Assembly (NCBI RefSeq): GCF_002854065.1
Contig: NZ_CP024147.1
Origin: Escherichia coli
Lineage (GTDB): Bacteria; Pseudomonadota; Gammaproteobacteria; Enterobacterales; Enterobacteriaceae
DNA: 64,000 bases
Reading direction: 5' to 3' (one strand)
Below, piece after piece: positions 5,390-52,883 of this stretch. The position numbers and the translations under genes were made by a program. The stretch's first letter is position 1. Each line of letters starts with the position of its first letter. The notes under the pieces were generated by a model. It was not told the origin of the DNA and did no database searches. It saw only the letters and a program-made list of their open reading frames with translations.

Positions 5390-5689
5390 TTTGTCGCTCC
5401 ATGCGTTTGCTCGTCATCTAGCGGTTAAAATATTACTTCAAATCTTTCTGCATAAAAGAGGAAAAGTATGAAAGTTTGAGTACATCGACCTTACATACAT
5501 CTGTCGGTTGCATATCCCTCCTGGATGCCAGCAAGGCTCAACTTTGTTACGCAATCAACACTATTCATTAAAAACAGGCTTAATATTTGACATAAATCAT
5601 CAACAAAACACAAAGAGGTCAGACCAGATTGAAACAATAAACACGATAATGCAAACTACGCGCCATCGTATCACATGGAAGGTTAACCA

Positions 5690-6900: not shown

Positions 6901-7098
6901 CACTTTTTTAAATCCAACGACAGACGGCTGGCATTTAAGTATTGTGAAATATTATCAAATGTAATCATCATTGATTTACAAAAGATACATTTTGCCCCGA
7001 AAGGATTCATGTCAGAAACATCAAAAGATGATGTTCTATACTGGGAACCATGACAACACGGGCATCTAAAGTGAATATGGTTTGTAATATTGTCTACC

Positions 7099-7311
7099 TC
7101 AAAGCGCCACTACATGAACAGCGGCAGGACCTTTAGGTCCGTTCTCAATACCAAATTCAACTTCCTGATTCTCAGTTAATGTTTTGAAATCGTTGCTCTG
7201 AATTGCTGAGAAATGGACAAACACATCTTTGCTGCCATCTTTCGGCGTGATGAAACCAAAACCTTTTTCAGGGTTAAACCATTTCACTAAACCAGTCATT
7301 TTGTTAGACAT
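7099..7311 (-). CDS. cspI: cold shock protein CspI
   Basis: 70-aa CspA-family [26 protein letters not shown]... Confidence 0.9.
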
Positions 7312-7673
7312 AATTATTACCTTTTGAAGAAATTAGCCCTTGGGCAGAATGGTCCGAAAAAAAATATCAGAGAGAAAAACCAACAAGGAAATCCCAAGAG
7401 GTACAAATAATAAAATTATAACAATGACTGCTTCAGATAAATTTGTAACAAACCAGAACACCATTAACGCATGATTAACCACCCATAGCAAGGATTACTT
7501 TTGTAAAGAAAAACACAGCAATGAAAGAATAGCTTTATTTATTAATAAAACGTGTCATTCTGATTAAGACCTTTTATCTTACCCTTAAGATTTCAGGAAT
7601 TTTGGCTCATGGAAGAGTCCTTTTTATTTAAATTTTACATTCCGCGATGTAAATGTTCCGATTTAATATTACC

Positions 7674-9702: not shown

Positions 9703-9983
9703 GAGATTGTGGTGCTTTTTGTGGGAGTCATCCACTTACGCACTTTGTTTTGCCATGCCAGCAGTTAGCTTCTGCTGTAAAACTATTCATGCCGCAAACC
9801 TGCACTTCACCACAATGGTTAGCATACTTTTCCTGATTAAGATTTTGCCAAATATGCTGGCCATTGTTTCATGTATTGGACCTCCTTAATTTTTATTAAA
9901 GAAATCCAATATTCACTACTCTGTCCGTATCTCTACTCAGGCATCAGCCTTCTTCGTTATCGTATACAGACGAGCGATGAATT

Positions 9984-10199
9984 TTAATCAGTAATGATGA
10001 CATTTGCTGCTGCAGGACCTTTAGCACCACTCTCTATAGAGAAGGTAACCTTTTGACCTTCAAATAAGGTTCGATAATTATCATTCTGAATCGCAGAAAA
10101 ATGCACAAACACATCTTTACTACCATCAACAGGAGAAATAAAGCCGAAACCTTTATCAGCGTTAAACCATTTTACTAAACCAGTCATTTTATTTGACAT
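9984..10199 (-). CDS. cspB: cold shock protein CspB
   Basis: 71-aa CspA-family [26 protein letters not shown]... Confidence 0.9.
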
Positions 10200-10509
10200 T
10201 CTACATTCCTTAACTTGAGCCTTTCGGCATAAATGGTTTGCATAACAGAAACGACTTCGTACTTAATTGGAGAGACTCAAAGAAGGAATAAGTGAATAAC
10301 ACCTGAAATGAGAACTGCTTTAGTAAACTACTTCGTATATCGTCTGTTCTTCAAACCGACGCAGTCATTAACTCATAGTTGAACATATGAAGCAATGTTT
10401 ATTTTAGACATCCAGCCACCTTCAACCCTATCAAAAAAGTAGTTTTCTCCAGGAACGTGTGTATGGTGCACCAGGTTATCAGTATTAAGGAGTTTTTCTG
10501 TCCCCTAAA

Positions 10510-10874: not shown

Positions 10875-12508
<1,634 letters not shown>

Positions 12509-19045: not shown

Positions 19046-19351
19046 ATGAAACTCTCAACCTGCTGTGCCGCGCTTCTGCTCGCCCTCGCCTCACCCGCGG
19101 TACTCGCCGCGCCGGGATCCTGTGAGTGCATACAGAGCGATATATCACAGCGCATTATCAATAATGGCGTACCCGAAAGCAGCTTCACGTTAAGTATTGC
19201 ACCCAATGACCAGGTTGATCAGCCTGATTCCCAGGTCGTCGGGCATTGTGCTAATGATACGCATAAAATTCTCTACACCCGCACCACCAGCGGTAACGTC
19301 TCTGCTCCCGCGCAGTCTACCCAGGATGGCGCGCCTGCCGAACTGCAGTAA
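19046..19351 (+). CDS. ynfD: secreted protein YnfD (DUF1161)
   Basis: 101 aa from MKLSTCCAALLLALA; AAGGAG Shine-Dalgarno. Confidence 0.8.
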   Translation: MKLSTCCAALLLALASPAVLAAPGSCECIQSDISQRIINNGVPESSFTLSIAPNDQVDQPDSQVVGHCANDTHKILYTRTTSGNVSAPAQSTQDGAPAELQ

Positions 19352-19367
19352 TACATTATCGACTGAA

Positions 19368-19390
19368 CGCCGGATACGACGCATCCGGCG
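19368..19390. repeat. REP-like palindrome / terminator hairpin
   Basis: CGCCGGAT-ACGACGC-ATCCGGCG. Confidence 0.35.
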
Positions 19391-19548
19391 ATTTGAACAT
19401 ATAACATAACCCACCTTATTACTCATACCCTTCTATTGATATGGATTAATAATTCTTAACCCAAAATGGGTAGACCCCCTCTATTGTTAGCGCGCTAAAT
19501 ATTCAATATATAAACTTTTATATAACGATAAAGAACAGGGAGTGAGTT

Positions 19549-21975
19549 ATGTCCAAAAATGAACAAATGGTGGGCATCAGCCGCAGAACACTCGTTAAAT
19601 CTACCGCGATAGGTTCTCTGGCGCTGGCTGCAGGCGGTTTTTCTTTACCGTTTACCCTGCACAGTGCAGCAGCAGCGGTACAACAGGCCCGCGAAAAAGT
19701 GGTCTGGGGTGCCTGTTCTGTCAACTGTGGTAGCCGCTGTGCACTTCGTCTACATGTTAAAGATAATGAAGTGACCTGGGTGGAAACTGACAATACCGGC
19801 AGCGATGAGTACGGCAACCATCAGGTACGCGCCTGTTTGCGCGGTCGCTCCATCCGCCGGCGTATTAATCATCCCGATCGCTTGAATTACCCAATGAAAC
19901 GCGTGGGCAAACGCGGCGAAGGCAAATTCGAACGGATTAGCTGGGATGAAGCCCTGGATACTATCGCCAGTAGCCTGAAGAAAACCGTCGAACAATATGG
20001 CAATGAGGCTGTATATATTCAGTACTCTTCGGGGATCGTTGGCGGCAATATGACCCGCTCTTCGCCATCAGCCTCGGCGGTCAAACGCCTGATGAACTGC
20101 TACGGCGGTTCACTCAACCAGTATGGCTCCTACAGCACTGCGCAAATTTCCTGTGCCATGCCCTACACCTACGGCAGTAATGATGGCAACAGCACCACGG
20201 ATATTGAAAACAGCAAGCTGGTCGTGATGTTTGGTAACAACCCGGCAGAAACCCGCATGAGCGGCGGTGGCATCACTTATCTTCTTGAAAAAGCCCGCGA
20301 AAAATCGAACGCAAAAATGATTGTTATCGATCCGCGATATACCGATACGGCTGCCGGTCGTGAAGACGAATGGCTTCCTATTCGCCCGGGCACCGATGCC
20401 GCGCTGGTTGCGGGTATTGCCTGGGTATTGATTAACGAAAATCTCGTTGATCAACCTTTTCTCGATAAATACTGCGTCGGCTATGACGAAAAAACCTTAC
20501 CCGCAGATGCACCCAAAAATGGTCACTATAAAGCCTATATTCTTGGTGAAGGTGACGATAAAACAGCGAAAACGCCGCAGTGGGCTTCGCAAATTACCGG
20601 TATCCCGGTGGACCGTATCATCAAACTGGCGCGTGAAATTGGCACAGCAAAACCCGCTTATATCTGCCAGGGCTGGGGGCCGCAACGCCAGGCAAACGGC
20701 GAGCTGACCGCACGCGCTATTGCTATGTTGCCTATTCTGACGGGCAATGTCGGCATCAGCGGCGGAAATAGTGGCGCGCGTGAATCGACCTATACCATTA
20801 CCATAGAGCGCCTGCCGGTGCTGGATAATCCGGTCAAAACGTCAATTTCCTGCTTCAGCTGGACAGATGCTATCGATCATGGCCCACAAATGACGGCAAT
20901 CCGCGACGGTGTCCGGGGCAAAGATAAACTGGATGTGCCCATTAAGTTCATCTGGAACTACGCGGGAAATACCCTGGTTAATCAGCATTCTGACATCAAC
21001 AAAACGCATGAAATTCTGCAGGACGAATCGAAATGCGAAATGATTGTGGTCATCGAAAACTTTATGACCTCATCGGCAAAATATGCCGACATTCTGCTGC
21101 CAGACCTGATGACCGTTGAGCAGGAAGATATTATTCCTAACGACTACGCCGGTAACATGGGATATCTCATTTTCCTCCAGCCAGTCACCAGCGAAAAATT
21201 CGAACGTAAACCGATTTACTGGATCCTGAGTGAGGTCGCGAAACGTCTTGGACCTGACGTCTATCAAAAGTTCACTGAAGGTCGCACGCAGGAACAATGG
21301 TTACAACATCTGTACGCCAAAATGCTTGCCAAAGATCCGGCGTTACCGTCTTACGACGAACTGAAAAAAATGGGTATCTATAAGCGTAAAGATCCCAATG
21401 GTCATTTTGTCGCCTACAAAGCATTTCGTGACGACCCCGAGGCAAATCCACTTAAAACACCTTCCGGTAAGATTGAAATTTATTCCAGCAAGCTGGCGGA
21501 AATTGCCCGTACCTGGGAACTGGAAAAAGATGAAGTGATAAGCCCACTGCCAGTTTATGCCTCAACCTTTGAAGGCTGGGACTCCCCTGAACGTAGTACC
21601 TTTCCACTGCAACTGTTTGGTTTCCATTACAAATCCCGTACTCACTCGACCTACGGCAATATTGATCTCCTGAAGGCTGCCTGCCGTCAGGAGGTGTGGA
21701 TCAACCCTATAGATGCGCAGAAACGTGGGATTGCCAACGGCGATATGGTGCGGGTGTTTAACCATCGTGGCGAAGTTCGGCTACCAGCCAAAGTGACACC
21801 ACGTATTCTCCCTGGAGTTAGCGCTATGGGCCAGGGAGCCTGGCACGAGGCCAATATGTCTGGCGATAAAATCGACCATGGAGGCTGTGTGAATACGCTA
21901 ACCACTCTGCGCCCTTCACCACTGGCGAAGGGAAACCCGCAGCATACGAATCTGGTCGAGATCGAAAAAATATAA
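19549..21975 (+). CDS. ynfE: Tat-exported molybdoenzyme, DMSO reductase family (YnfE)
   Basis: 808-aa ORF; twin-arginine signal SRRTLVK. Confidence 0.9.
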   Translation: MSKNEQMVGISRRTLVKSTAIGSLALAAGGFSLPFTLHSAAAAVQQAREKVVWGACSVNCGSRCALRLHVKDNEVTWVETDNTGSDEYGNHQVRACLRGRSIRRRINHPDRLNYPMKRVGKRGEGKFERISWDEALDTIASSLKKTVEQYGNEAVYIQYSSGIVGGNMTRSSPSASAVKRLMNCYGGSLNQYGSYSTAQISCAMPYTYGSNDGNSTTDIENSKLVVMFGNNPAETRMSGGGITYLLEKAREKSNAKMIVIDPRYTDTAAGREDEWLPIRPGTDAALVAGIAWVLINENLVDQPFLDKYCVGYDEKTLPADAPKNGHYKAYILGEGDDKTAKTPQWASQITGIPVDRIIKLAREIGTAKPAYICQGWGPQRQANGELTARAIAMLPILTGNVGISGGNSGARESTYTITIERLPVLDNPVKTSISCFSWTDAIDHGPQMTAIRDGVRGKDKLDVPIKFIWNYAGNTLVNQHSDINKTHEILQDESKCEMIVVIENFMTSSAKYADILLPDLMTVEQEDIIPNDYAGNMGYLIFLQPVTSEKFERKPIYWILSEVAKRLGPDVYQKFTEGRTQEQWLQHLYAKMLAKDPALPSYDELKKMGIYKRKDPNGHFVAYKAFRDDPEANPLKTPSGKIEIYSSKLAEIARTWELEKDEVISPLPVYASTFEGWDSPERSTFPLQLFGFHYKSRTHSTYGNIDLLKAACRQEVWINPIDAQKRGIANGDMVRVFNHRGEVRLPAKVTPRILPGVSAMGQGAWHEANMSGDKIDHGGCVNTLTTLRPSPLAKGNPQHTNLVEIEKI

Positions 21976-22032
21976 CCCACTACAACCATAAATTCTGGCA
22001 TGACATTTTGTTTGAAAAGCAATAAGTGAGTA

Positions 22033-24459
22033 ATGATGAAAATCCATACCACAGAGGCGCTCATGAAGGCTGAAATCAGCCGTAGAAGTCTGATGAAAAC
22101 CTCCGCACTTGGCAGTCTTGCGCTGGCAAGCAGTGCTTTCACTCTGCCATTTTCCCAAATGGTCCGGGCGGCAGAGGCTCCGGTAGAAGAGAAAGCGGTC
22201 TGGAGTTCCTGTACCGTTAACTGCGGGAGCCGCTGTCTGTTACGTTTGCATGTGAAAGATGACACCGTGTACTGGGTGGAGTCTGATACGACAGGTGACG
22301 ACGTCTACGGTAATCATCAGGTTCGAGCGTGTTTACGCGGGCGCTCTATCCGCCGACGGATGAATCATCCTGATAGGTTGAAATATCCCATGAAGCGCGT
22401 CGGCAAGCGCGGTGAAGGTAAATTTGAACGGATAAGTTGGGACGAAGCCCTGGATACCATCAGTGATAATCTTCGGCGGATCCTAAAAGATTACGGCAAT
22501 GAGGCTGTACATGTCCTGTACGGAACAGGTGTAGATGGCGGAAACATCACCAACTCAAACGTCCCGTACCGTCTGATGAACTCTTGCGGTGGTTTTCTCA
22601 GTCGCTATGGCAGCTACAGTACCGCACAGATCAGTGCCGCAATGAGTTATATGTTCGGTGCCAATGATGGCAACAGCCCGGATGATATCGCCAATACGAA
22701 ACTGGTCGTTATGTTCGGAAATAACCCGGCAGAAACGCGGATGAGCGGTGGTGGTGTCACTTACTACGTCGAGCAAGCCCGCGAACGTTCAAACGCACGC
22801 ATGATCGTCATCGATCCACGTTATAACGACACAGCTGCCGGGCGTGAAGATGAATGGCTGCCCATTCGCCCTGGCACCGATGGCGCACTGGCCTGTGCGA
22901 TTGCCTGGGTACTGATTACTGAAAACATGGTCGATCAGCCATTTCTCGACAAATATTGTGTTGGTTACGATGAAAAAACGCTGCCCGCCAACGCACCACG
23001 TAACGCGCATTATAAAGCCTATATTCTGGGCGAAGGGCCTGACGGCATAGCTAAAACGCCGGAATGGGCAGCAAAAATCACCTGCATCCCGGCAGAAAAA
23101 ATTATCCAGTTGGCACGAGAGATCGGTTCAGCAAAACCTGCTTATATTTGTCAGGGTTGGGGGCCACAACGACATTCCAACGGCGAGCAAACATCCCGCG
23201 CTATTGCCATGCTTTCCGTTCTCATCGGTAACGTCGGCATAAACGGCGGCAACTCAGGCGTACGCGAAGGTAGCTGGGATCTGGGGGTAGAATGGTTCCC
23301 GATGCTCGAGAATCCTGTTAAAACGCAGATTTCCGTCTTTACATGGACAGATGCCATCGATCATGGTACGGAAATGACCGCGACCCGTGATGGTGTTCGT
23401 GGAAAAGAAAAACTGGATGTCCCCATCAAGTTTTTATGGTGCTACGCCAGTAACACATTGATCAATCAACATGGCGACATCAATCACACCCATGAGGTGC
23501 TTCAGGATGACAGCAAGTGCGAGATGATTGTTGGCATTGACCACTTCATGACGGCCTCGGCTAAGTATTGCGATATCCTGTTGCCCGACCTGATGCCAAC
23601 AGAGCAAGAAGACCTTATCTCTCATGAATCTGCAGGGAATATGGGCTATGTGATCCTCGCCCAACCCGCAACCTCAGCAAAATTTGAACGCAAACCCATC
23701 TACTGGATGCTGAGTGAAGTCGCCAAACGCTTAGGACCGGACGTTTATCAAACCTTTACTGAAGGTCGCAGTCAGCATGAATGGATCAAATATCTCCATG
23801 CGAAAACGAAGGAACGTAACCCTGAGATGCCCGACTACGAGGAGATGAAAACGACCGGGATCTTTAAGAAAAAATGCCCGGAAGAACACTACGTCGCTTT
23901 CCGCGCATTCCGTGAAGATCCACAGGCAAACCCGTTGAAAACACCTTCGGGGAAAATCGAAATTTATTCTGAACGACTGGCGAAGATTGCAGATACCTGG
24001 GAATTGAAAAAAGATGAAGTTATTCATCCCCTTCCAGCTTATACGCCAGGTTTTGATGGCTGGGACGATCCCCTGCGGAAAACCTATCCACTGCAGTTAA
24101 CGGGCTTCCACTACAAAGCGCGTACCCACTCCAGCTACGGCAATATTGATGTGTTACAGCAGGCCTGCCCACAAGAGGTGTGGATCAACCCCATTGATGC
24201 TCAGGCACGCGGTATCCGTCATGGCGATACCGTGCGGGTATTTAACAATAATGGAGAAATGCTGATTGCCGCAAAAGTGACTCCGCGTATTCTGCCTGGC
24301 GTTACCGCCATCGGGCAAGGTGCGTGGCTTAAAGCGGATATGTTTGGTGACCGGGTCGATCACGGCGGCAGTATTAATATTCTGACCTCTCACCGCCCTT
24401 CACCGCTGGCAAAGGGAAACCCGTCGCACAGCAATCTTGTCCAGATCGAAAAGGTTTAA
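22033..24459 (+). CDS. ynfF: Tat-exported molybdoenzyme, DMSO reductase family (YnfF)
   Basis: 808-aa paralogue of the upstream gene; twin-arginine signal SRRSLMK; start may be 3 nt downstream. Confidence 0.9.
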   Translation: MMKIHTTEALMKAEISRRSLMKTSALGSLALASSAFTLPFSQMVRAAEAPVEEKAVWSSCTVNCGSRCLLRLHVKDDTVYWVESDTTGDDVYGNHQVRACLRGRSIRRRMNHPDRLKYPMKRVGKRGEGKFERISWDEALDTISDNLRRILKDYGNEAVHVLYGTGVDGGNITNSNVPYRLMNSCGGFLSRYGSYSTAQISAAMSYMFGANDGNSPDDIANTKLVVMFGNNPAETRMSGGGVTYYVEQARERSNARMIVIDPRYNDTAAGREDEWLPIRPGTDGALACAIAWVLITENMVDQPFLDKYCVGYDEKTLPANAPRNAHYKAYILGEGPDGIAKTPEWAAKITCIPAEKIIQLAREIGSAKPAYICQGWGPQRHSNGEQTSRAIAMLSVLIGNVGINGGNSGVREGSWDLGVEWFPMLENPVKTQISVFTWTDAIDHGTEMTATRDGVRGKEKLDVPIKFLWCYASNTLINQHGDINHTHEVLQDDSKCEMIVGIDHFMTASAKYCDILLPDLMPTEQEDLISHESAGNMGYVILAQPATSAKFERKPIYWMLSEVAKRLGPDVYQTFTEGRSQHEWIKYLHAKTKERNPEMPDYEEMKTTGIFKKKCPEEHYVAFRAFREDPQANPLKTPSGKIEIYSERLAKIADTWELKKDEVIHPLPAYTPGFDGWDDPLRKTYPLQLTGFHYKARTHSSYGNIDVLQQACPQEVWINPIDAQARGIRHGDTVRVFNNNGEMLIAAKVTPRILPGVTAIGQGAWLKADMFGDRVDHGGSINILTSHRPSPLAKGNPSHSNLVQIEKV

Positions 24460-24469
24460 GGAGTAGCCC

Positions 24470-25087
24470 ATGACCACACAATATGGATTTTTTATCGATT
24501 CCAGCCGCTGTACTGGCTGTAAAACCTGCGAACTGGCGTGCAAAGATTTTAAAGATCTTGGCCCGGAAGTCAGTTTCCGCCGTATTTATGAATATGCTGG
24601 CGGCGACTGGCAGGAAGATAATGGCGTCTGGCACCAGAACGTGTTCGCTTATTATCTCTCCATCTCCTGTAACCATTGCGATGACCCCGCATGTACAAAA
24701 GTCTGCCCCAGCGGCGCAATGCATAAGCGTGAAGATGGCTTTGTGGTGGTTGATGAAGATGTTTGTATCGGCTGCCGCTACTGCCACATGGCTTGTCCGT
24801 ACGGCGCGCCACAGTACAATGCTGAAAAAGGGCACATGACGAAGTGCGATGGTTGTTATTCGCGCGTCGCCGAGGGGAAACAACCCATATGTGTCGAATC
24901 CTGCCCGCTGCGTGCACTTGAGTTCGGTCCAATTGAAGAGCTGCGCCAGAAGCACGGCACTCTGGCTGCCGTCGCGCCACTGCCGCGCGCGCATTTCACA
25001 AAACCCAATATCGTTATCAAACCTAACGCCAACAGCCGCCCGACCGGCGATACCACTGGTTATCTGGCTAATCCGGAGGAAGTTTAA
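24470..25087 (+). CDS. ynfG: 4Fe-4S ferredoxin-type subunit (DmsB-like)
   Basis: 205-aa ORF with multiple CxxCxxCxxxCP motifs. Confidence 0.9.
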   Translation: MTTQYGFFIDSSRCTGCKTCELACKDFKDLGPEVSFRRIYEYAGGDWQEDNGVWHQNVFAYYLSISCNHCDDPACTKVCPSGAMHKREDGFVVVDEDVCIGCRYCHMACPYGAPQYNAEKGHMTKCDGCYSRVAEGKQPICVESCPLRALEFGPIEELRQKHGTLAAVAPLPRAHFTKPNIVIKPNANSRPTGDTTGYLANPEEV

Positions 25088-25088
25088 A

Positions 25089-25943
25089 ATGGGAAATGGA
25101 TGGCATGAATGGCCACTGGTTATCTTTACCGTATTGGGTCAATGCATAGTAGGCGCGCTGATTGTTAGCGGAATTGGCTGGTTCGCCGCCAAAAATGACG
25201 CAGACCGTCAGCACATTGTTCGTGGCATGTTTTTCCTCTGGCTGTTGATGGGCATCGGGTTTATTGCCTCTGTCATGCACCTGGGATCGCCACTGCGGGC
25301 GTTTAACTCGCTGAATCGAATCGGAGCTTCTGGTCTGAGTAACGAGATTGCTGCCGGTTCCATATTTTTTGCCGTTGGCGGACTATGGTGGCTGGTGGCG
25401 GTCATCGGTAAAATGCCGCAAGCGTTGGGGAAACTCTGGTTACTTGTCAGCATGGCGCTCGGCGTCATTTTCGTCTGGATGATGACCTGCGTGTATCAAA
25501 TCGACACTGTGCCCACCTGGCATAACGGTTACACTACGCTGGCTTTCTTCCTGACGGTATTGTTGAGTGGTCCAATACTTGCTGCCGCAATTCTGCGGGC
25601 AGCCCGCGTTACATTTAATACCACACCATTTGCCATCATTAGCGTTCTAGCGCTGATCGCTTGTGCCGGGGTGATTGTGCTGCAAGGTTTGTCTCTGTCG
25701 TCTATTCACTCATCCGTGCAACAAGCCAGCGCACTAGTACCAGATTACGCCTCCTTACAGGTCTGGCGTGTGGTATTGTTATGCGCAGGTCTAGGATGCT
25801 GGCTTTGTCCGCTCATACGTCGCCGTGAACCTCACGTTGCCGGACTTATTCTGGGGTTAATCCTCATTCTTGGCGGTGAGATGATCGGGCGTGTGCTCTT
25901 TTATGGCCTGCACATGACGGTAGGAATGGCTATTGCAGGTTAA
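25089..25943 (+). CDS. ynfH: membrane anchor subunit (DmsC-like)
   Basis: 284 aa from MGNGWHEW; polytopic; ORF-track start is extended. Confidence 0.85.
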   Translation: MGNGWHEWPLVIFTVLGQCIVGALIVSGIGWFAAKNDADRQHIVRGMFFLWLLMGIGFIASVMHLGSPLRAFNSLNRIGASGLSNEIAAGSIFFAVGGLWWLVAVIGKMPQALGKLWLLVSMALGVIFVWMMTCVYQIDTVPTWHNGYTTLAFFLTVLLSGPILAAAILRAARVTFNTTPFAIISVLALIACAGVIVLQGLSLSSIHSSVQQASALVPDYASLQVWRVVLLCAGLGCWLCPLIRRREPHVAGLILGLILILGGEMIGRVLFYGLHMTVGMAIAG

Positions 25944-25985
25944 CAAATTGGTGCGGGGCAACCCGCACATTTCAGGATGTTAGGA

Positions 25986-26600
25986 ATGACCCATTTTTCA
26001 CAGCAAGATAATTTTTCTGTCGCGGCGCGCGTGTTGGGCGCGCTGTTTTATTACGCTCCAGAGAGTGCTGAAGCCGCACCTCTGGTTGCGGTACTCACCA
26101 GTGACGGCTGGGAAACTCAGTGGCCTCTACCAGAAGCGTCATTAGCGCCGCTGGTGACGGCTTTTCAGACACAGTGTGAAGAGACTCACGCCCAGGCCTG
26201 GCAGCGTTTGTTTGTCGGCCCGTGGGCACTGCCGTCTCCGCCGTGGGGGTCGGTCTGGCTGGATCGCGAATCTGTGCTGTTTGGCGATTCAACATTGGCA
26301 CTTCGTCAGTGGATGCGCGAGAAAGGCATTCAGTTTGAAATGAAGCAAAACGAACCGGAAGATCATTTTGGTTCACTGCTGTTGATGGCTGCGTGGTTGG
26401 CGGAGAATGGTCGCCAGACAGAATGCGAAGAATTGCTGGCATGGCACCTTTTTCCGTGGTCAACACGTTTTCTTGACGTTTTTATCGAAAAAGCAGAACA
26501 CCCTTTCTACCGCGCACTGGGTGAACTGGCTCGCTTAACGCTGGCGCAATGGCAATCACAACTGTTAATTCCTGTCGCGGTTAAACCGCTGTTTCGATAG
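25986..26600 (+). CDS. dmsD: Tat proofreading chaperone DmsD
   Basis: 204 aa from MTHFSQQDNFS. Confidence 0.9.
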   Translation: MTHFSQQDNFSVAARVLGALFYYAPESAEAAPLVAVLTSDGWETQWPLPEASLAPLVTAFQTQCEETHAQAWQRLFVGPWALPSPPWGSVWLDRESVLFGDSTLALRQWMREKGIQFEMKQNEPEDHFGSLLLMAAWLAENGRQTECEELLAWHLFPWSTRFLDVFIEKAEHPFYRALGELARLTLAQWQSQLLIPVAVKPLFR

Positions 26601-26612
26601 GATCACCGTAAT

Positions 26613-26649
26613 ATTGCCGGATGGTGACGATTACGCGCAATCCGGCAAT
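26613..26649. repeat. REP-like palindrome
   Basis: ATTGCCGGAT-17 nt-ATCCGGCAAT just after the dmsD stop. Confidence 0.3.
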
Positions 26650-26793
26650 AATAGGTTACAGTGTCACGTTTTTTATCTCTTAAAGCACGCACTGCTTTTG
26701 CGGCTGGCCTCTTTTGCCGCAAAATAGTCGCCCGTGTTTCATTGCCCATTTCTGCTCATGCATCATCTACACATCTATCCGGATCTGCGCACT

Positions 26794-52839: not shown

Positions 52840-52850
52840 TTCACAGCCAA

Positions 52851-52878
52851 AACGCCGGAGGTTTTTCTCTCCGGCGTT
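52851..52878. terminator. bidirectional terminator hairpin
   Basis: ACGCCGGAG-GTTTTTCTC-TCCGGCGT between convergent ydgA and uidC. Confidence 0.5.
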
Positions 52879-52883
52879 ATTTC

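Follow-up and report, generated by a model that had tools for sequence, protein, structure and literature searches.

Two palindromes lie 3' of ynfD and dmsD

The window, by which we mean the whole 64-kb stretch of E. coli DNA that was analysed, contains ynfD and, downstream on the same strand, the ynfE-ynfF-ynfG-ynfH-dmsD operon (Table 1), which is named ynfEFGH-dmsD in PMC5203670 and is induced during anaerobic growth, when FNR is active. Gene identities were taken from the RefSeq annotation of K-12 and of strain 100416, which is 99.8%-identical. The initial annotation had reported a palindrome behind ynfD and another behind dmsD, and we find both. Site 1 has exactly the bounds given for it; site 2 had been delimited as ATTGCCGGAT-17 nt-ATCCGGCAAT at 26613-26649, and its perfect stem is in fact longer, with one extra pair on each side. 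Their location at gene 3' ends is likewise borne out by the RefSeq annotation. Site 1 starts 16 nt past the TAA of ynfD and the 11-bp stem of site 2 starts 11 nt past the TAG of dmsD, an extragenic position just 3' of a stop codon that both share with repetitive extragenic palindromes (REPs). The K-12 coordinates (NC_000913.3) are 1,657,887-1,657,909 for site 1 and 1,665,132-1,665,170 for site 2.

Table 1. Genes and sequence features at the two sites (window coordinates)
Feature	Position	Strand	Basis or remarks
ynfD CDS (DUF1161 protein)	19046..19351	+	TAA 19349-19351; ORF list and RefSeq annotation of K-12 and strain 100416
Site 1 hairpin, CGCCGGAT-ACGACGC-ATCCGGCG	19368..19390	+	Sequence; 8-bp perfect stem, 7-nt loop
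ynfE-ynfF-ynfG-ynfH-dmsD operon	19549..26600	+	ORFs and RefSeq annotation
dmsD	25986..26600	+	TAG stop 26598-26600
Extended RNA structure, site 2	26601..26665	+	Predicted MFE fold
Site 2 hairpin, TATTGCCGGAT-17 nt-ATCCGGCAATA	26612..26650	+	11-bp perfect stem; single-copy, E. coli core genome
Near-palindrome GTTACAGTGTCAC	26655..26667	+	dmsD-downstream sequences L005-L010 and L013-L016
T-run	26669..26674	+	T6 here; T5 to T9 in other strains

A perfect 8-bp hairpin is not rare by itself: dinucleotide shuffles of the window contain 17.4 ± 4.3 perfect hairpins of at least 8 bp, and the window contains 37. Those of 10 bp or longer are enriched (11 versus 1.0 in dinucleotide shuffles). The outer stem of E. 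coli REPs (types y, z1 and z2), GCC(G/T)GAT...ATC(C/A)GGC, is exact at both sites. Searched as GCC(G/T)GAT-N3-30-ATC(C/A)GGC, it has its sole two occurrences in the window there and none in 30 shuffles, and simple arithmetic with uniform base frequencies predicts about 0.03 per 64 kb. Additionally, both sites are predicted to fold as RNA with energies well below those of shuffled sequences (site 1, -12.6 kcal/mol, z -3.1; 26613-26649 at site 2, -19.7 kcal/mol, z -4.2), and each has the GC-rich stem-loop of an intrinsic terminator.

Neither palindrome scores as a REP

The resemblance to REPs that had been noted for the two sites holds for the outer stem GCCGGAT...ATCCGGC and for the location at a gene 3' end, but it does not extend beyond those two traits. 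In the REP consensus scan that had been proposed as a check, neither site passed with nhmmer or with a covariance model. An nhmmer profile made from 40 K-12 REPs gave 5.2 bits at site 1 (E=1.8) and no match at site 2. Because this profile tolerates the internal deletion too poorly to be informative about site 1, we replaced it with a covariance model, R1, built on 30 distinct K-12 REPs. With this model, canonical REPs score 44-61 bits (K-12) or 33-52 bits (other species). The top match in the window is site 1, at 15.0 bits (E=0.27), which is not significant alone; it covers 19365-19389 on the + strand and is full-length apart from a 12-to-1 internal deletion. No match to site 2 was returned at E<=10. 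Both sites lie about 30 bits or more below members of the family.

The hallmarks of REPs other than the outer stem are missing. The GTAG tetranucleotide conserved 5' of the stem (CTAC on the other strand) is absent at both sites: its position at site 1 reads GAAC (19365-19368), and the sequence on either side of site 2 is AT-rich (TATT and AATA). GTAGGCC and GGCCTAC do not occur anywhere in the window. Of the two-base mismatch and inner stem (AAG(G/A)CG...CG(C/T)CGC), the inner stem is deleted at site 1, and the interior of site 2, GGTGACGATTACGCGCA, does not align to the REP model. Nor are the sites repetitive: queries that included flanks (101 nt for site 1, 47 nt for site 2) each matched a single place per genome (median 1), and the 7-bp stem is the only piece that they have in common. 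BIME pairing is seen at neither, and in E. coli both are single hairpins. Binding and cleavage by TnpA-REP need GTAG and the stem mismatch (PMC3333891), and since these are lacking we predict that neither site is bound or cleaved. We also considered whether site 2 belongs to another repeat family, which was rejected when BLAST at word size 11 returned one place per genome.

Nothing was found at site 1 or site 2 in an Rfam scan at the gathering thresholds, and a permissive scan gave only chance-level matches. Among these, naRNA4 (RF02564) reached 13.7 bits at 26615-26659 (E=4.5), far below its gathering score of 59.5, so that site 2 does not qualify as a member. We take naRNA4 to derive from a REP element (REP325). 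The missing REP annotation at both sites is uninformative because the RefSeq copy of NC_000913.3 that we used has no REP repeat_region features at all; a BIME that we detected by pattern at 5565-5669 is not listed there either. RepRanger defines as 'REP candidates' any intergenic palindrome without a U-tail, of which it counts >4,000 in MG1655 (PMC12306157). As an intergenic palindrome without a U-rich tail, site 1 would probably qualify. Site 2 fits less clearly, its extended fold being followed by a T-run, but it does fall in the class <=15 nt from the stop codon. Such candidacy does not establish REP membership, since the definition requires neither sequence repetition nor the GTAG tail. 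The part of the RepRanger supplements available to us names neither ynfD nor dmsD.

Site 1 is probably the relic of a REP

At the orthologous position behind ynfD, a true two-REP BIME is present in L006 and L007 (E. whittamii and another Escherichia species), and a BIME or a REP was detected in L006, L007 and L008. The second REP of the L006/L007 BIME has the same (+) orientation as site 1 and scores 15-16 bits, about as site 1 does. Site 1 aligns to it with a single 9-nt gap and with GAAC in place of GTAG; counted by hand against L006, 23 of 28 aligned columns are identical. Site 1 also keeps the ATA...CGCATCCGGC of the y consensus. The full BIME at ynfD was not found in any of the 5426 complete E. 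coli genomes. Because the differences from the second REP of the BIME include the 9-nt internal deletion and the change of GTAG to GAAC, we conclude that site 1 is probably a relic of a y-type REP in which the inner stem was deleted and GTAG mutated. This proposed homology rests on synteny and a short alignment. In an evolutionary sense, the REP idea would therefore have been right for site 1. Truncated, tail-less GCCGGAT hairpins have a precedent in K-12, where one stands in the position of a BIME partner (L024, 29427), and in 308 kb of K-12 the other GCCGGAT...ATCCGGC hairpins are canonical REPs, lie beside one or occur at a gene end.

We envisage that an Escherichia ancestor carried a REP or BIME at the 3' end of ynfD and that, the E. 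coli lineage lost its first REP, the linker and, from the second REP, the inner stem, while GTAG became GAAC. What was left would be a 23-nt hairpin derived from the old outer stem, which may now mark where a monocistronic ynfD transcript ends, ahead of ynfE with its own promoter.

Site 2 is conserved across the genus

Of 5426 complete E. coli genomes, 5419 contain site 2, each at one place, and species throughout Escherichia retain its core helix in position, with two compensatory pairs. The ancestral form, CCGGATGGCGAC-AATA-GTGCGCCATCCGG, does not match the REP model. In Pseudocitrobacter, the position downstream of dmsD holds a weakly REP-like hairpin (17-19 bits with the covariance model), and for this reason site 2 may have REP ancestry. 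The initial annotation had named simple terminators as the alternative to REPs, and for site 2 a simple terminator or 3' hairpin is the description that fits better.

A larger structure is predicted around the hairpin in E. coli. The MFE fold of 26601-26680 has an energy of -27.3 kcal/mol (z -3.98) and includes an outer helix in which 26601-26612 pairs with 26655-26665, ending 3 nt before the T-run. The T6 accordingly lies 18 nt past the strong stem and 3 nt past the predicted weak outer helix. The near-palindrome at the distal arm of this helix has a counterpart, GTGACAACGTCAC, in Citrobacter sedlakii, Pseudocitrobacter and strain E69. Other Escherichia species have a degenerate T-run, so that the genus-conserved function of site 2 cannot be intrinsic termination.

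The hairpins are proposed to act at transcript 3' ends

Variation among strains points to the strand on which the stems act. Three independent substitutions in E. coli-group strains fall in the stems: one at site 1 in L005 and L027, one at site 1 in L029 and one at site 2 in L028, L029 and L005. All three are transitions that leave a G·U pair in the RNA of the + strand and would leave A·C on the other, so the substitutions, three in number, keep pairing on the sense strand only. In the loop of site 1, three of the seven positions vary among strains. In other genera, ynfD and dmsD are each directly followed by a GC-rich hairpin of unrelated sequence, indicating that the position is conserved while the sequence has been replaced.

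Taken together, these observations lead us to favor, with somewhat better than even confidence, the view that both sites are transcript-end stem-loops that act on the sense RNA and are not active REPs, with site 1 the relic of a REP or BIME and site 2 a genus-conserved element. The most likely function of both is that of an mRNA 3'-end hairpin, either for termination or as an exonuclease barrier. Each hairpin would form in the nascent or mature mRNA, where it would block 3'->5' exonucleases, promote termination or both, and in this way define where the upstream message ends and how stable it is, and limit read-through into ynfE or clcB. At dmsD, the last gene of the operon, this role would fall to a unique hairpin directly after the gene, which in E. 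coli could extend to a 65-nt structure.

Bona fide REPs do the same job at 3' ends, serving as exonuclease barriers or in termination and in message stability, and the intercistronic REPs of malE-malF and hisJ-hisQ are the classical cases of REP-dependent stabilization and attenuation. Like these, the two sites are GC-rich hairpins right after a cistron (between dmsD and clcB and between ynfD and ynfE), placed such that they could protect the upstream message and cut downstream expression, although here the function is inferred. They differ in that site 1 is shorter and site 2 unique in sequence. Like Rho-independent terminators, both are GC-rich stem-loops standing where a transcription unit ends, and T6 follows the extended fold at site 2. 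In such terminators the U-tract starts within about 2 nt of the stem. Site 1 is followed by AUUUGAAC with no U-tract, leaving only AUUUG after the stem; at site 2 the T-run lies 18 nt from the strong stem and 3 nt from the weak outer helix. A simple terminator pattern scan flagged neither site. In a search for published RNA 3' ends, we found no ynfD or dmsD entry in the supplements to the Term-seq (eLife 2021) and SMRT-Cappable-seq (Nat Commun 2018) studies, and a literature search on ynfD returned nothing relevant. REPs located <16 nt from a stop codon can lower translation (summarised in PMC12306157), and site 2, which begins within this distance, may for that reason also delay the termination of dmsD translation.

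Alternative explanations

That both sites are instead genuine, functional single y-type REPs recognised by the REP-associated transposase TnpA-REP (YafM) is favored by the outer stem identical to that of y-type REPs, by the extragenic setting 3' of a gene and by the rank of site 1 as the window's top covariance-model match; naRNA4, as the sole Rfam family touching site 2, could be counted on the same side. The scan largely refutes this reading, which we hold to be very improbable: 15 bits at one site and no match at the other compare with 44-61 bits for real REPs, each site is single-copy per genome, and neither has GTAG/CTAC. The inner stem and mismatch are lacking at site 1 and unmatched at site 2, and TnpA-REP depends on GTAG and the mismatch for binding and cleavage (PMC3333891). 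Dropping REPs altogether, the sites could be plain terminators or 3' hairpins whose common GCCGGAT stem reflects convergence on a favored GC-rich stem. The single-copy, genus-wide site 2 with its unmatched ancestral form, its extended fold ending 3 nt before T6, and the unrelated hairpins at both positions in other genera are all in keeping with this. Yet the exact REP heptamer on both arms of two hairpins is very unlikely to arise by chance, site 1 can be aligned with a real REP that stands, equally oriented, in the orthologous position, the K-12 hairpins with this stem (308 kb) are all canonical REPs, next to one or at gene ends, and a weakly REP-like hairpin occupies the dmsD position in Pseudocitrobacter. 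We therefore consider an origin without REPs unlikely, while giving it some weight.

The palindromes might also work as double-stranded DNA rather than as RNA, for instance as a protein operator or, at site 2, as part of a clcB promoter. Promoter-like hexamers (GTGACG-17-AATAAT) do occur within site 2 at 26624-26652, and the conserved near-palindrome GTTACAGTGTCAC comes after it, but promoter-like sites are rarer in the region than in shuffles (5 versus 9.5) and after the stem substitutions the arms still pair, as G·U, only in + strand RNA. Moreover, a hairpin is present from genus to genus but its arm sequences change, a pattern more in keeping with a constraint on structure than with one on a specific sequence. 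We hold a DNA site to be quite improbable. That the palindromes are chance occurrences without function deserves very little credence: about 17 perfect 8-bp hairpins are expected in 64 kb by chance and the function of both sites is inferred, but the REP-stem pattern never appears in shuffles, stems are conserved where loops vary, and site 2 is present in nearly all E. coli genomes and genus-wide.

Implications and related observations

The significance of the two sites beyond annotation is slight. The analysis points out likely 3'-end structures for the transcripts of ynfD and of ynfEFGH-dmsD, and these can be annotated. An outer-stem match alone is insufficient to call a REP, and site 1 would be a clean case of a REP or BIME decaying to a short hairpin that is retained at a gene end. 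Other tail-less hairpins comparable to site 1 are found in K-12 after yijD, after yfbR and beside the yjbB-pepE REP. A more speculative proposal, which we regard as doubtful, is that such 'mini-REPs' are a domesticated end-state of REP decay, selected as sense-RNA 3' hairpins and no longer seen by the REP transposase because GTAG and the inner stem are lost, and that the ynfD relic is in addition a recurrent microhomology breakpoint for loss of ynfEFGH.

Two further observations make small contributions on how REPs shape local genome rearrangement. A BIME is polymorphic for presence and absence, with duplicated terminators on its flanks. The ynfEFGH selenate-reductase genes have been lost, apparently independently, in strain GmF046, strain E69 and SCPM-O-B-8794, and in this repeated loss one breakpoint lies within a REP or its relic.

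Stable hairpins at the 3' ends of ynfD and dmsD

The initial annotation had described palindromes after ynfD and dmsD (sites 1 and 2, respectively), located at gene 3' ends, and both are present exactly where it placed them, site 2 having the longer, 11-bp stem (see table). Each folds more stably than shuffled controls, with −12.6 kcal/mol (z −3.1) at site 1 and −19.7 kcal/mol (z −4.2) at site 2. Perfect hairpins of at least 8 bp number 37 in the 64 kb against 17.4 ± 4.3 in shuffles; by itself, such a hairpin is unremarkable in a stretch of this length. What is remarkable is the excess of stems of at least 10 bp (11 in the window vs 1.0 in shuffles), together with two hairpins in which each arm holds the REP heptamer, a configuration found in 0 of 30 shuffles.

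The window is E. coli chromosome, and a 601-nt stretch around ynfD has a match in 5383 of 5426 complete E. coli genomes. In K-12 and in a 99.8%-identical strain, the annotated gene order is ynfC (minus strand), ynfD, ynfE, ynfF, ynfG, ynfH, dmsD, clcB. Elsewhere in the window, gathering-level Rfam matches fall at 161-359, 7072-7457, 9968-10360 and 11327-11449; they are IS009, two cspA-type thermoregulator leaders (cold-shock genes of the Qin prophage region) and isrC.

Features of the ynfD and dmsD 3' regions and covariance model scores
Feature	Coordinates	Strand	Sequence	Score or remark
Site 1 hairpin	19368-19390		CGCCGGAT-ACGACGC-ATCCGGCG	starts 16 nt 3' of ynfD TAA
Site 1, covariance model match	19365-19389	+		15.0 bits, E=0.27, top match in window
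Site 1, K-12 allele				13.2 bits
FNR-like site	19436-19449		TTGATATGGATTAA	~100 nt upstream of ynfE start
Site 2 hairpin	26613-26649		ATTGCCGGAT-17 nt-ATCCGGCAAT	
Site 2 perfect stem	26612-26650			11 bp; starts 11 nt 3' of dmsD TAG
Site 2 extended fold	26601-26665			−27.3 kcal/mol
Near-palindrome 3' of site 2	26655-26667		GTTACAGTGTCAC	
T-run	26669-26674			
Hairpin in clcB upstream leader	26696-26724		TTTTGCGGC-11 nt-GCCGCAAAA	perfect 9 bp
Canonical K-12 REPs				44-61 bits
REPs of E. albertii, Pseudocitrobacter and strain E69				33-52 bits

Comparison with the REP family

E. coli REPs are defined by a GTAG tetranucleotide and a stem mismatch, both of which are needed for binding and cleavage by TnpA-REP, the REP-associated transposase (PMC3333891). 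The RefSeq copy of K-12 used here carries no REP features, and a BIME (a cluster of paired REPs) that a pattern search found at K-12 5565-5669 is unlisted there; from 308 kb of K-12 sequence we therefore assembled our own reference, comprising 40 canonical REPs (30 distinct; types y, z1 and z2). Nearly all of them start with GTAG; in four, this motif differs at one or two positions. From these REPs we made a profile HMM, as well as a covariance model based on their known two-helix structure.

Scanned with the covariance model, site 1 fell well below the canonical range, and nhmmer gave it 5.2 bits. Site 2 had no match to the covariance model at E≤10 on either strand and nothing with the nhmmer profile. 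Neither GTAGGCC nor GGCCTAC occurs in the 64-kb window, and both sites have one copy per genome. Judged by the defining features, neither site 1 nor site 2 belongs to the REP family. Formally, this is the outcome that the initial annotation had named as refuting its reading, a lack of any match to the REP consensus. The resemblance to REPs proposed in the initial annotation holds in part: site 1 is a probable decayed REP, and site 2 is REP-like in its outer stem only. Aligned full-length to the model, site 1 reads GAACGCCGGAUACG-[1]-CGCAUCCGGC against the consensus GUAGGCCGGAUAAG-[12]-CGCAUCCGGC; both ends of a y REP are therefore kept, the whole inner stem-loop is gone, and GAAC stands in place of GTAG.

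The covariance model found no canonical REP in the window (best 15 bits), and ~8 would be expected in 64 kb when scaled from the 584 reported for K-12 (PMC3333891). Part of the window is Qin-prophage-like sequence. Between ydgA and uidC, K-12 (L003 23372-23590) carries a two-REP BIME (z2 and y) with a copy of a terminator hairpin, AAACGCCGGAG...CTCCGGCGTT, on each side, and the window strain (52846-52880) has the hairpin in one copy, without the BIME. This difference is a BIME presence/absence polymorphism with direct repeats at its bounds.

Origin of site 1

We compared 18 syntenic loci, obtained from a DmsD scan of one genome per species. Escherichia whittamii and Escherichia sp. E1V33 have a real BIME in the ynfD-ynfE spacer, immediately 3' of the ynfD stop, in which a z1-like REP ending CTAC/CAAC is followed by a linker and then by GTAG and a second REP in the opposite orientation; the covariance model finds both (19-21 and 15-16 bits). 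The same spacer in strain E69 holds one z-type REP (36.8 bits). Site 1 (GA-CTGAACGCCGGATACGACG---------CATCCGG) aligns in the same orientation with the second REP of the BIME (GATCTGTAGGCTCGATAAGACGCTCACGAGCCATCCGG), with 23 identities over 28 aligned columns and a single 9-nt gap. The full BIME is found at the ynfD site in 0 of 5426 complete E. coli genomes, and the short form is therefore fixed in the species. From its whole or partial presence in at least three non-coli lineages, we infer that the BIME is ancestral.

Short tail-less hairpins with the GCCGGAT stem of site 1 also occur in K-12. One is in the partner position beside a canonical z REP, 15 nt away, in yjbB-pepE (L024 29427-29445), and the other two (L023 12141-12162 and L026 9496-9514) are 3' of yijD and yfbR. 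REPs have therefore been cut down to the outer stem alone more than once, and these hairpins suggest a recurring 'mini-REP' decay product. Site 1 is itself most likely a REP relic.

Apparent losses of ynfEFGH sequence are seen in three strains. E. coli GmF046 (L027 3040-3065) lacks ~6.4 kb from ynfE to mid-ynfH, window position 19380 being joined to ~25759; at this junction, with ~12 nt of microhomology, the site 1 loop and 3' arm (ACGACAGGTC[C/T]GGCG) run into internal ynfH sequence, TTACAGGTCTGGCGTGTGG. The REP 3' arm of strain E69 (L008 524-575) is fused to the same ynfH point (…ATCAGGCCTGCC joined to GTGTGGTATTG), and in SCPM-O-B-8794 (L009 9937-10000) part of a REP is fused immediately upstream of dmsD. 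All three appear to be independent losses in which one of the breakpoints falls within a REP or relic.

Conservation of site 2

Of 5426 complete E. coli genomes, 5419 carry a single copy of site 2, and in 3101 of these the sequence is identical. All Escherichia loci show a hairpin at this position, usually CCGGATGG(C/T)GAC-loop-G(C/T)GCGCCATCCGG, with better interior pairing than the E. coli version; in strain E69 the sequence differs and pairing is kept (CCGAAGGGCGT...ACGCCTTTCGG). RNAalifold retains the core helix with two compensatory pairs. Farther afield, the hairpins of Citrobacter species are unrelated, a textbook terminator occurs in one Citrobacter MAG (GAAGGCAGG-TTTTT-CCTGCCTTTTCTG), and the Pseudocitrobacter hairpin is weakly REP-like (17-19 bits). 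Kluyvera has no hairpin here because clcB abuts dmsD, its start lying ~10-25 nt from the dmsD stop (L018, L019, L021). Its conservation and single copy thus mark site 2 as a 3' hairpin that is old, unique and conserved in position. It may have REP ancestry, and is better called a conserved transcript-end hairpin than a REP.

In the E. coli MFE fold, the extended hairpin stops 3 nt before T6, a run that varies from T5 to T9 among strains and is degenerate in other Escherichia species. In this species, site 2 may serve as a weak intrinsic terminator.

The dmsD-clcB junction is plastic over evolution: in Citrobacter sedlakii, a Citrobacter MAG and Pseudocitrobacter (L013, L014, L016), a ~4-kb ABC-transporter operon separates the two genes. 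The near-palindrome 3' of site 2 (GTGACAACGTCAC in C. sedlakii, Pseudocitrobacter and strain E69) is kept across genera even where this operon intervenes, usually with a T-rich tract following it, and may either form a small terminator hairpin or bind a protein. The hairpin in the clcB leader has no Rfam match and is recognisable in other Escherichia and Citrobacter loci.

Strain variation and proposed function

In strains of the E. coli group, the stem of site 1 shows no variation beyond wobble changes, and its loop varies at 3 of 7 positions (ACGACGC, ATGACAA, ACGACAC, ACGACAG). This loop (19376-19382) is a variation hot spot, mostly of transitions, and stems change to wobble pairs only. The window's own allele is rare, with 13 of 5426 genomes at least 99% identical over 101 nt. 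As to the stem substitutions, site 1 has A->G in GmF046 and locus L005 and C->T in strain 18KM2445, and site 2 has C->T in APEC O1, 18KM2445 and L005. Each of the three produces a G·U pair in + strand RNA, where the opposite strand would have A·C. The pattern, of three events only, favours a sense-RNA structure more than a DNA site.

A hairpin lies directly 3' of ynfD and dmsD in nearly every genus sampled, with its sequence replaced, which speaks for a structural function where the transcript ends. Most likely, the 3'-end stem-loop would block 3'->5' exonucleases, cause termination, or both, mechanisms long attributed to REPs and terminator hairpins. The upstream message would thereby be stabilised, and the promoter or gene that follows (ynfE, clcB) insulated. 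We found no RNA 3' ends for ynfD or dmsD, both poorly expressed, in the E. coli transcript-mapping data searched. The finding is an ordinary one, of use mainly for annotation.

Hairpins starting <16 nt past a stop codon are reported to reduce translation of the preceding gene (PMC12306157), and site 2 falls in this class because of its distance from the dmsD stop. Downstream of site 1, the FNR-like site resembles the consensus TTGAT-N4-ATCAA and is kept in almost every Escherichia and Citrobacter locus compared; it is compatible with a separate FNR-dependent ynfE promoter.
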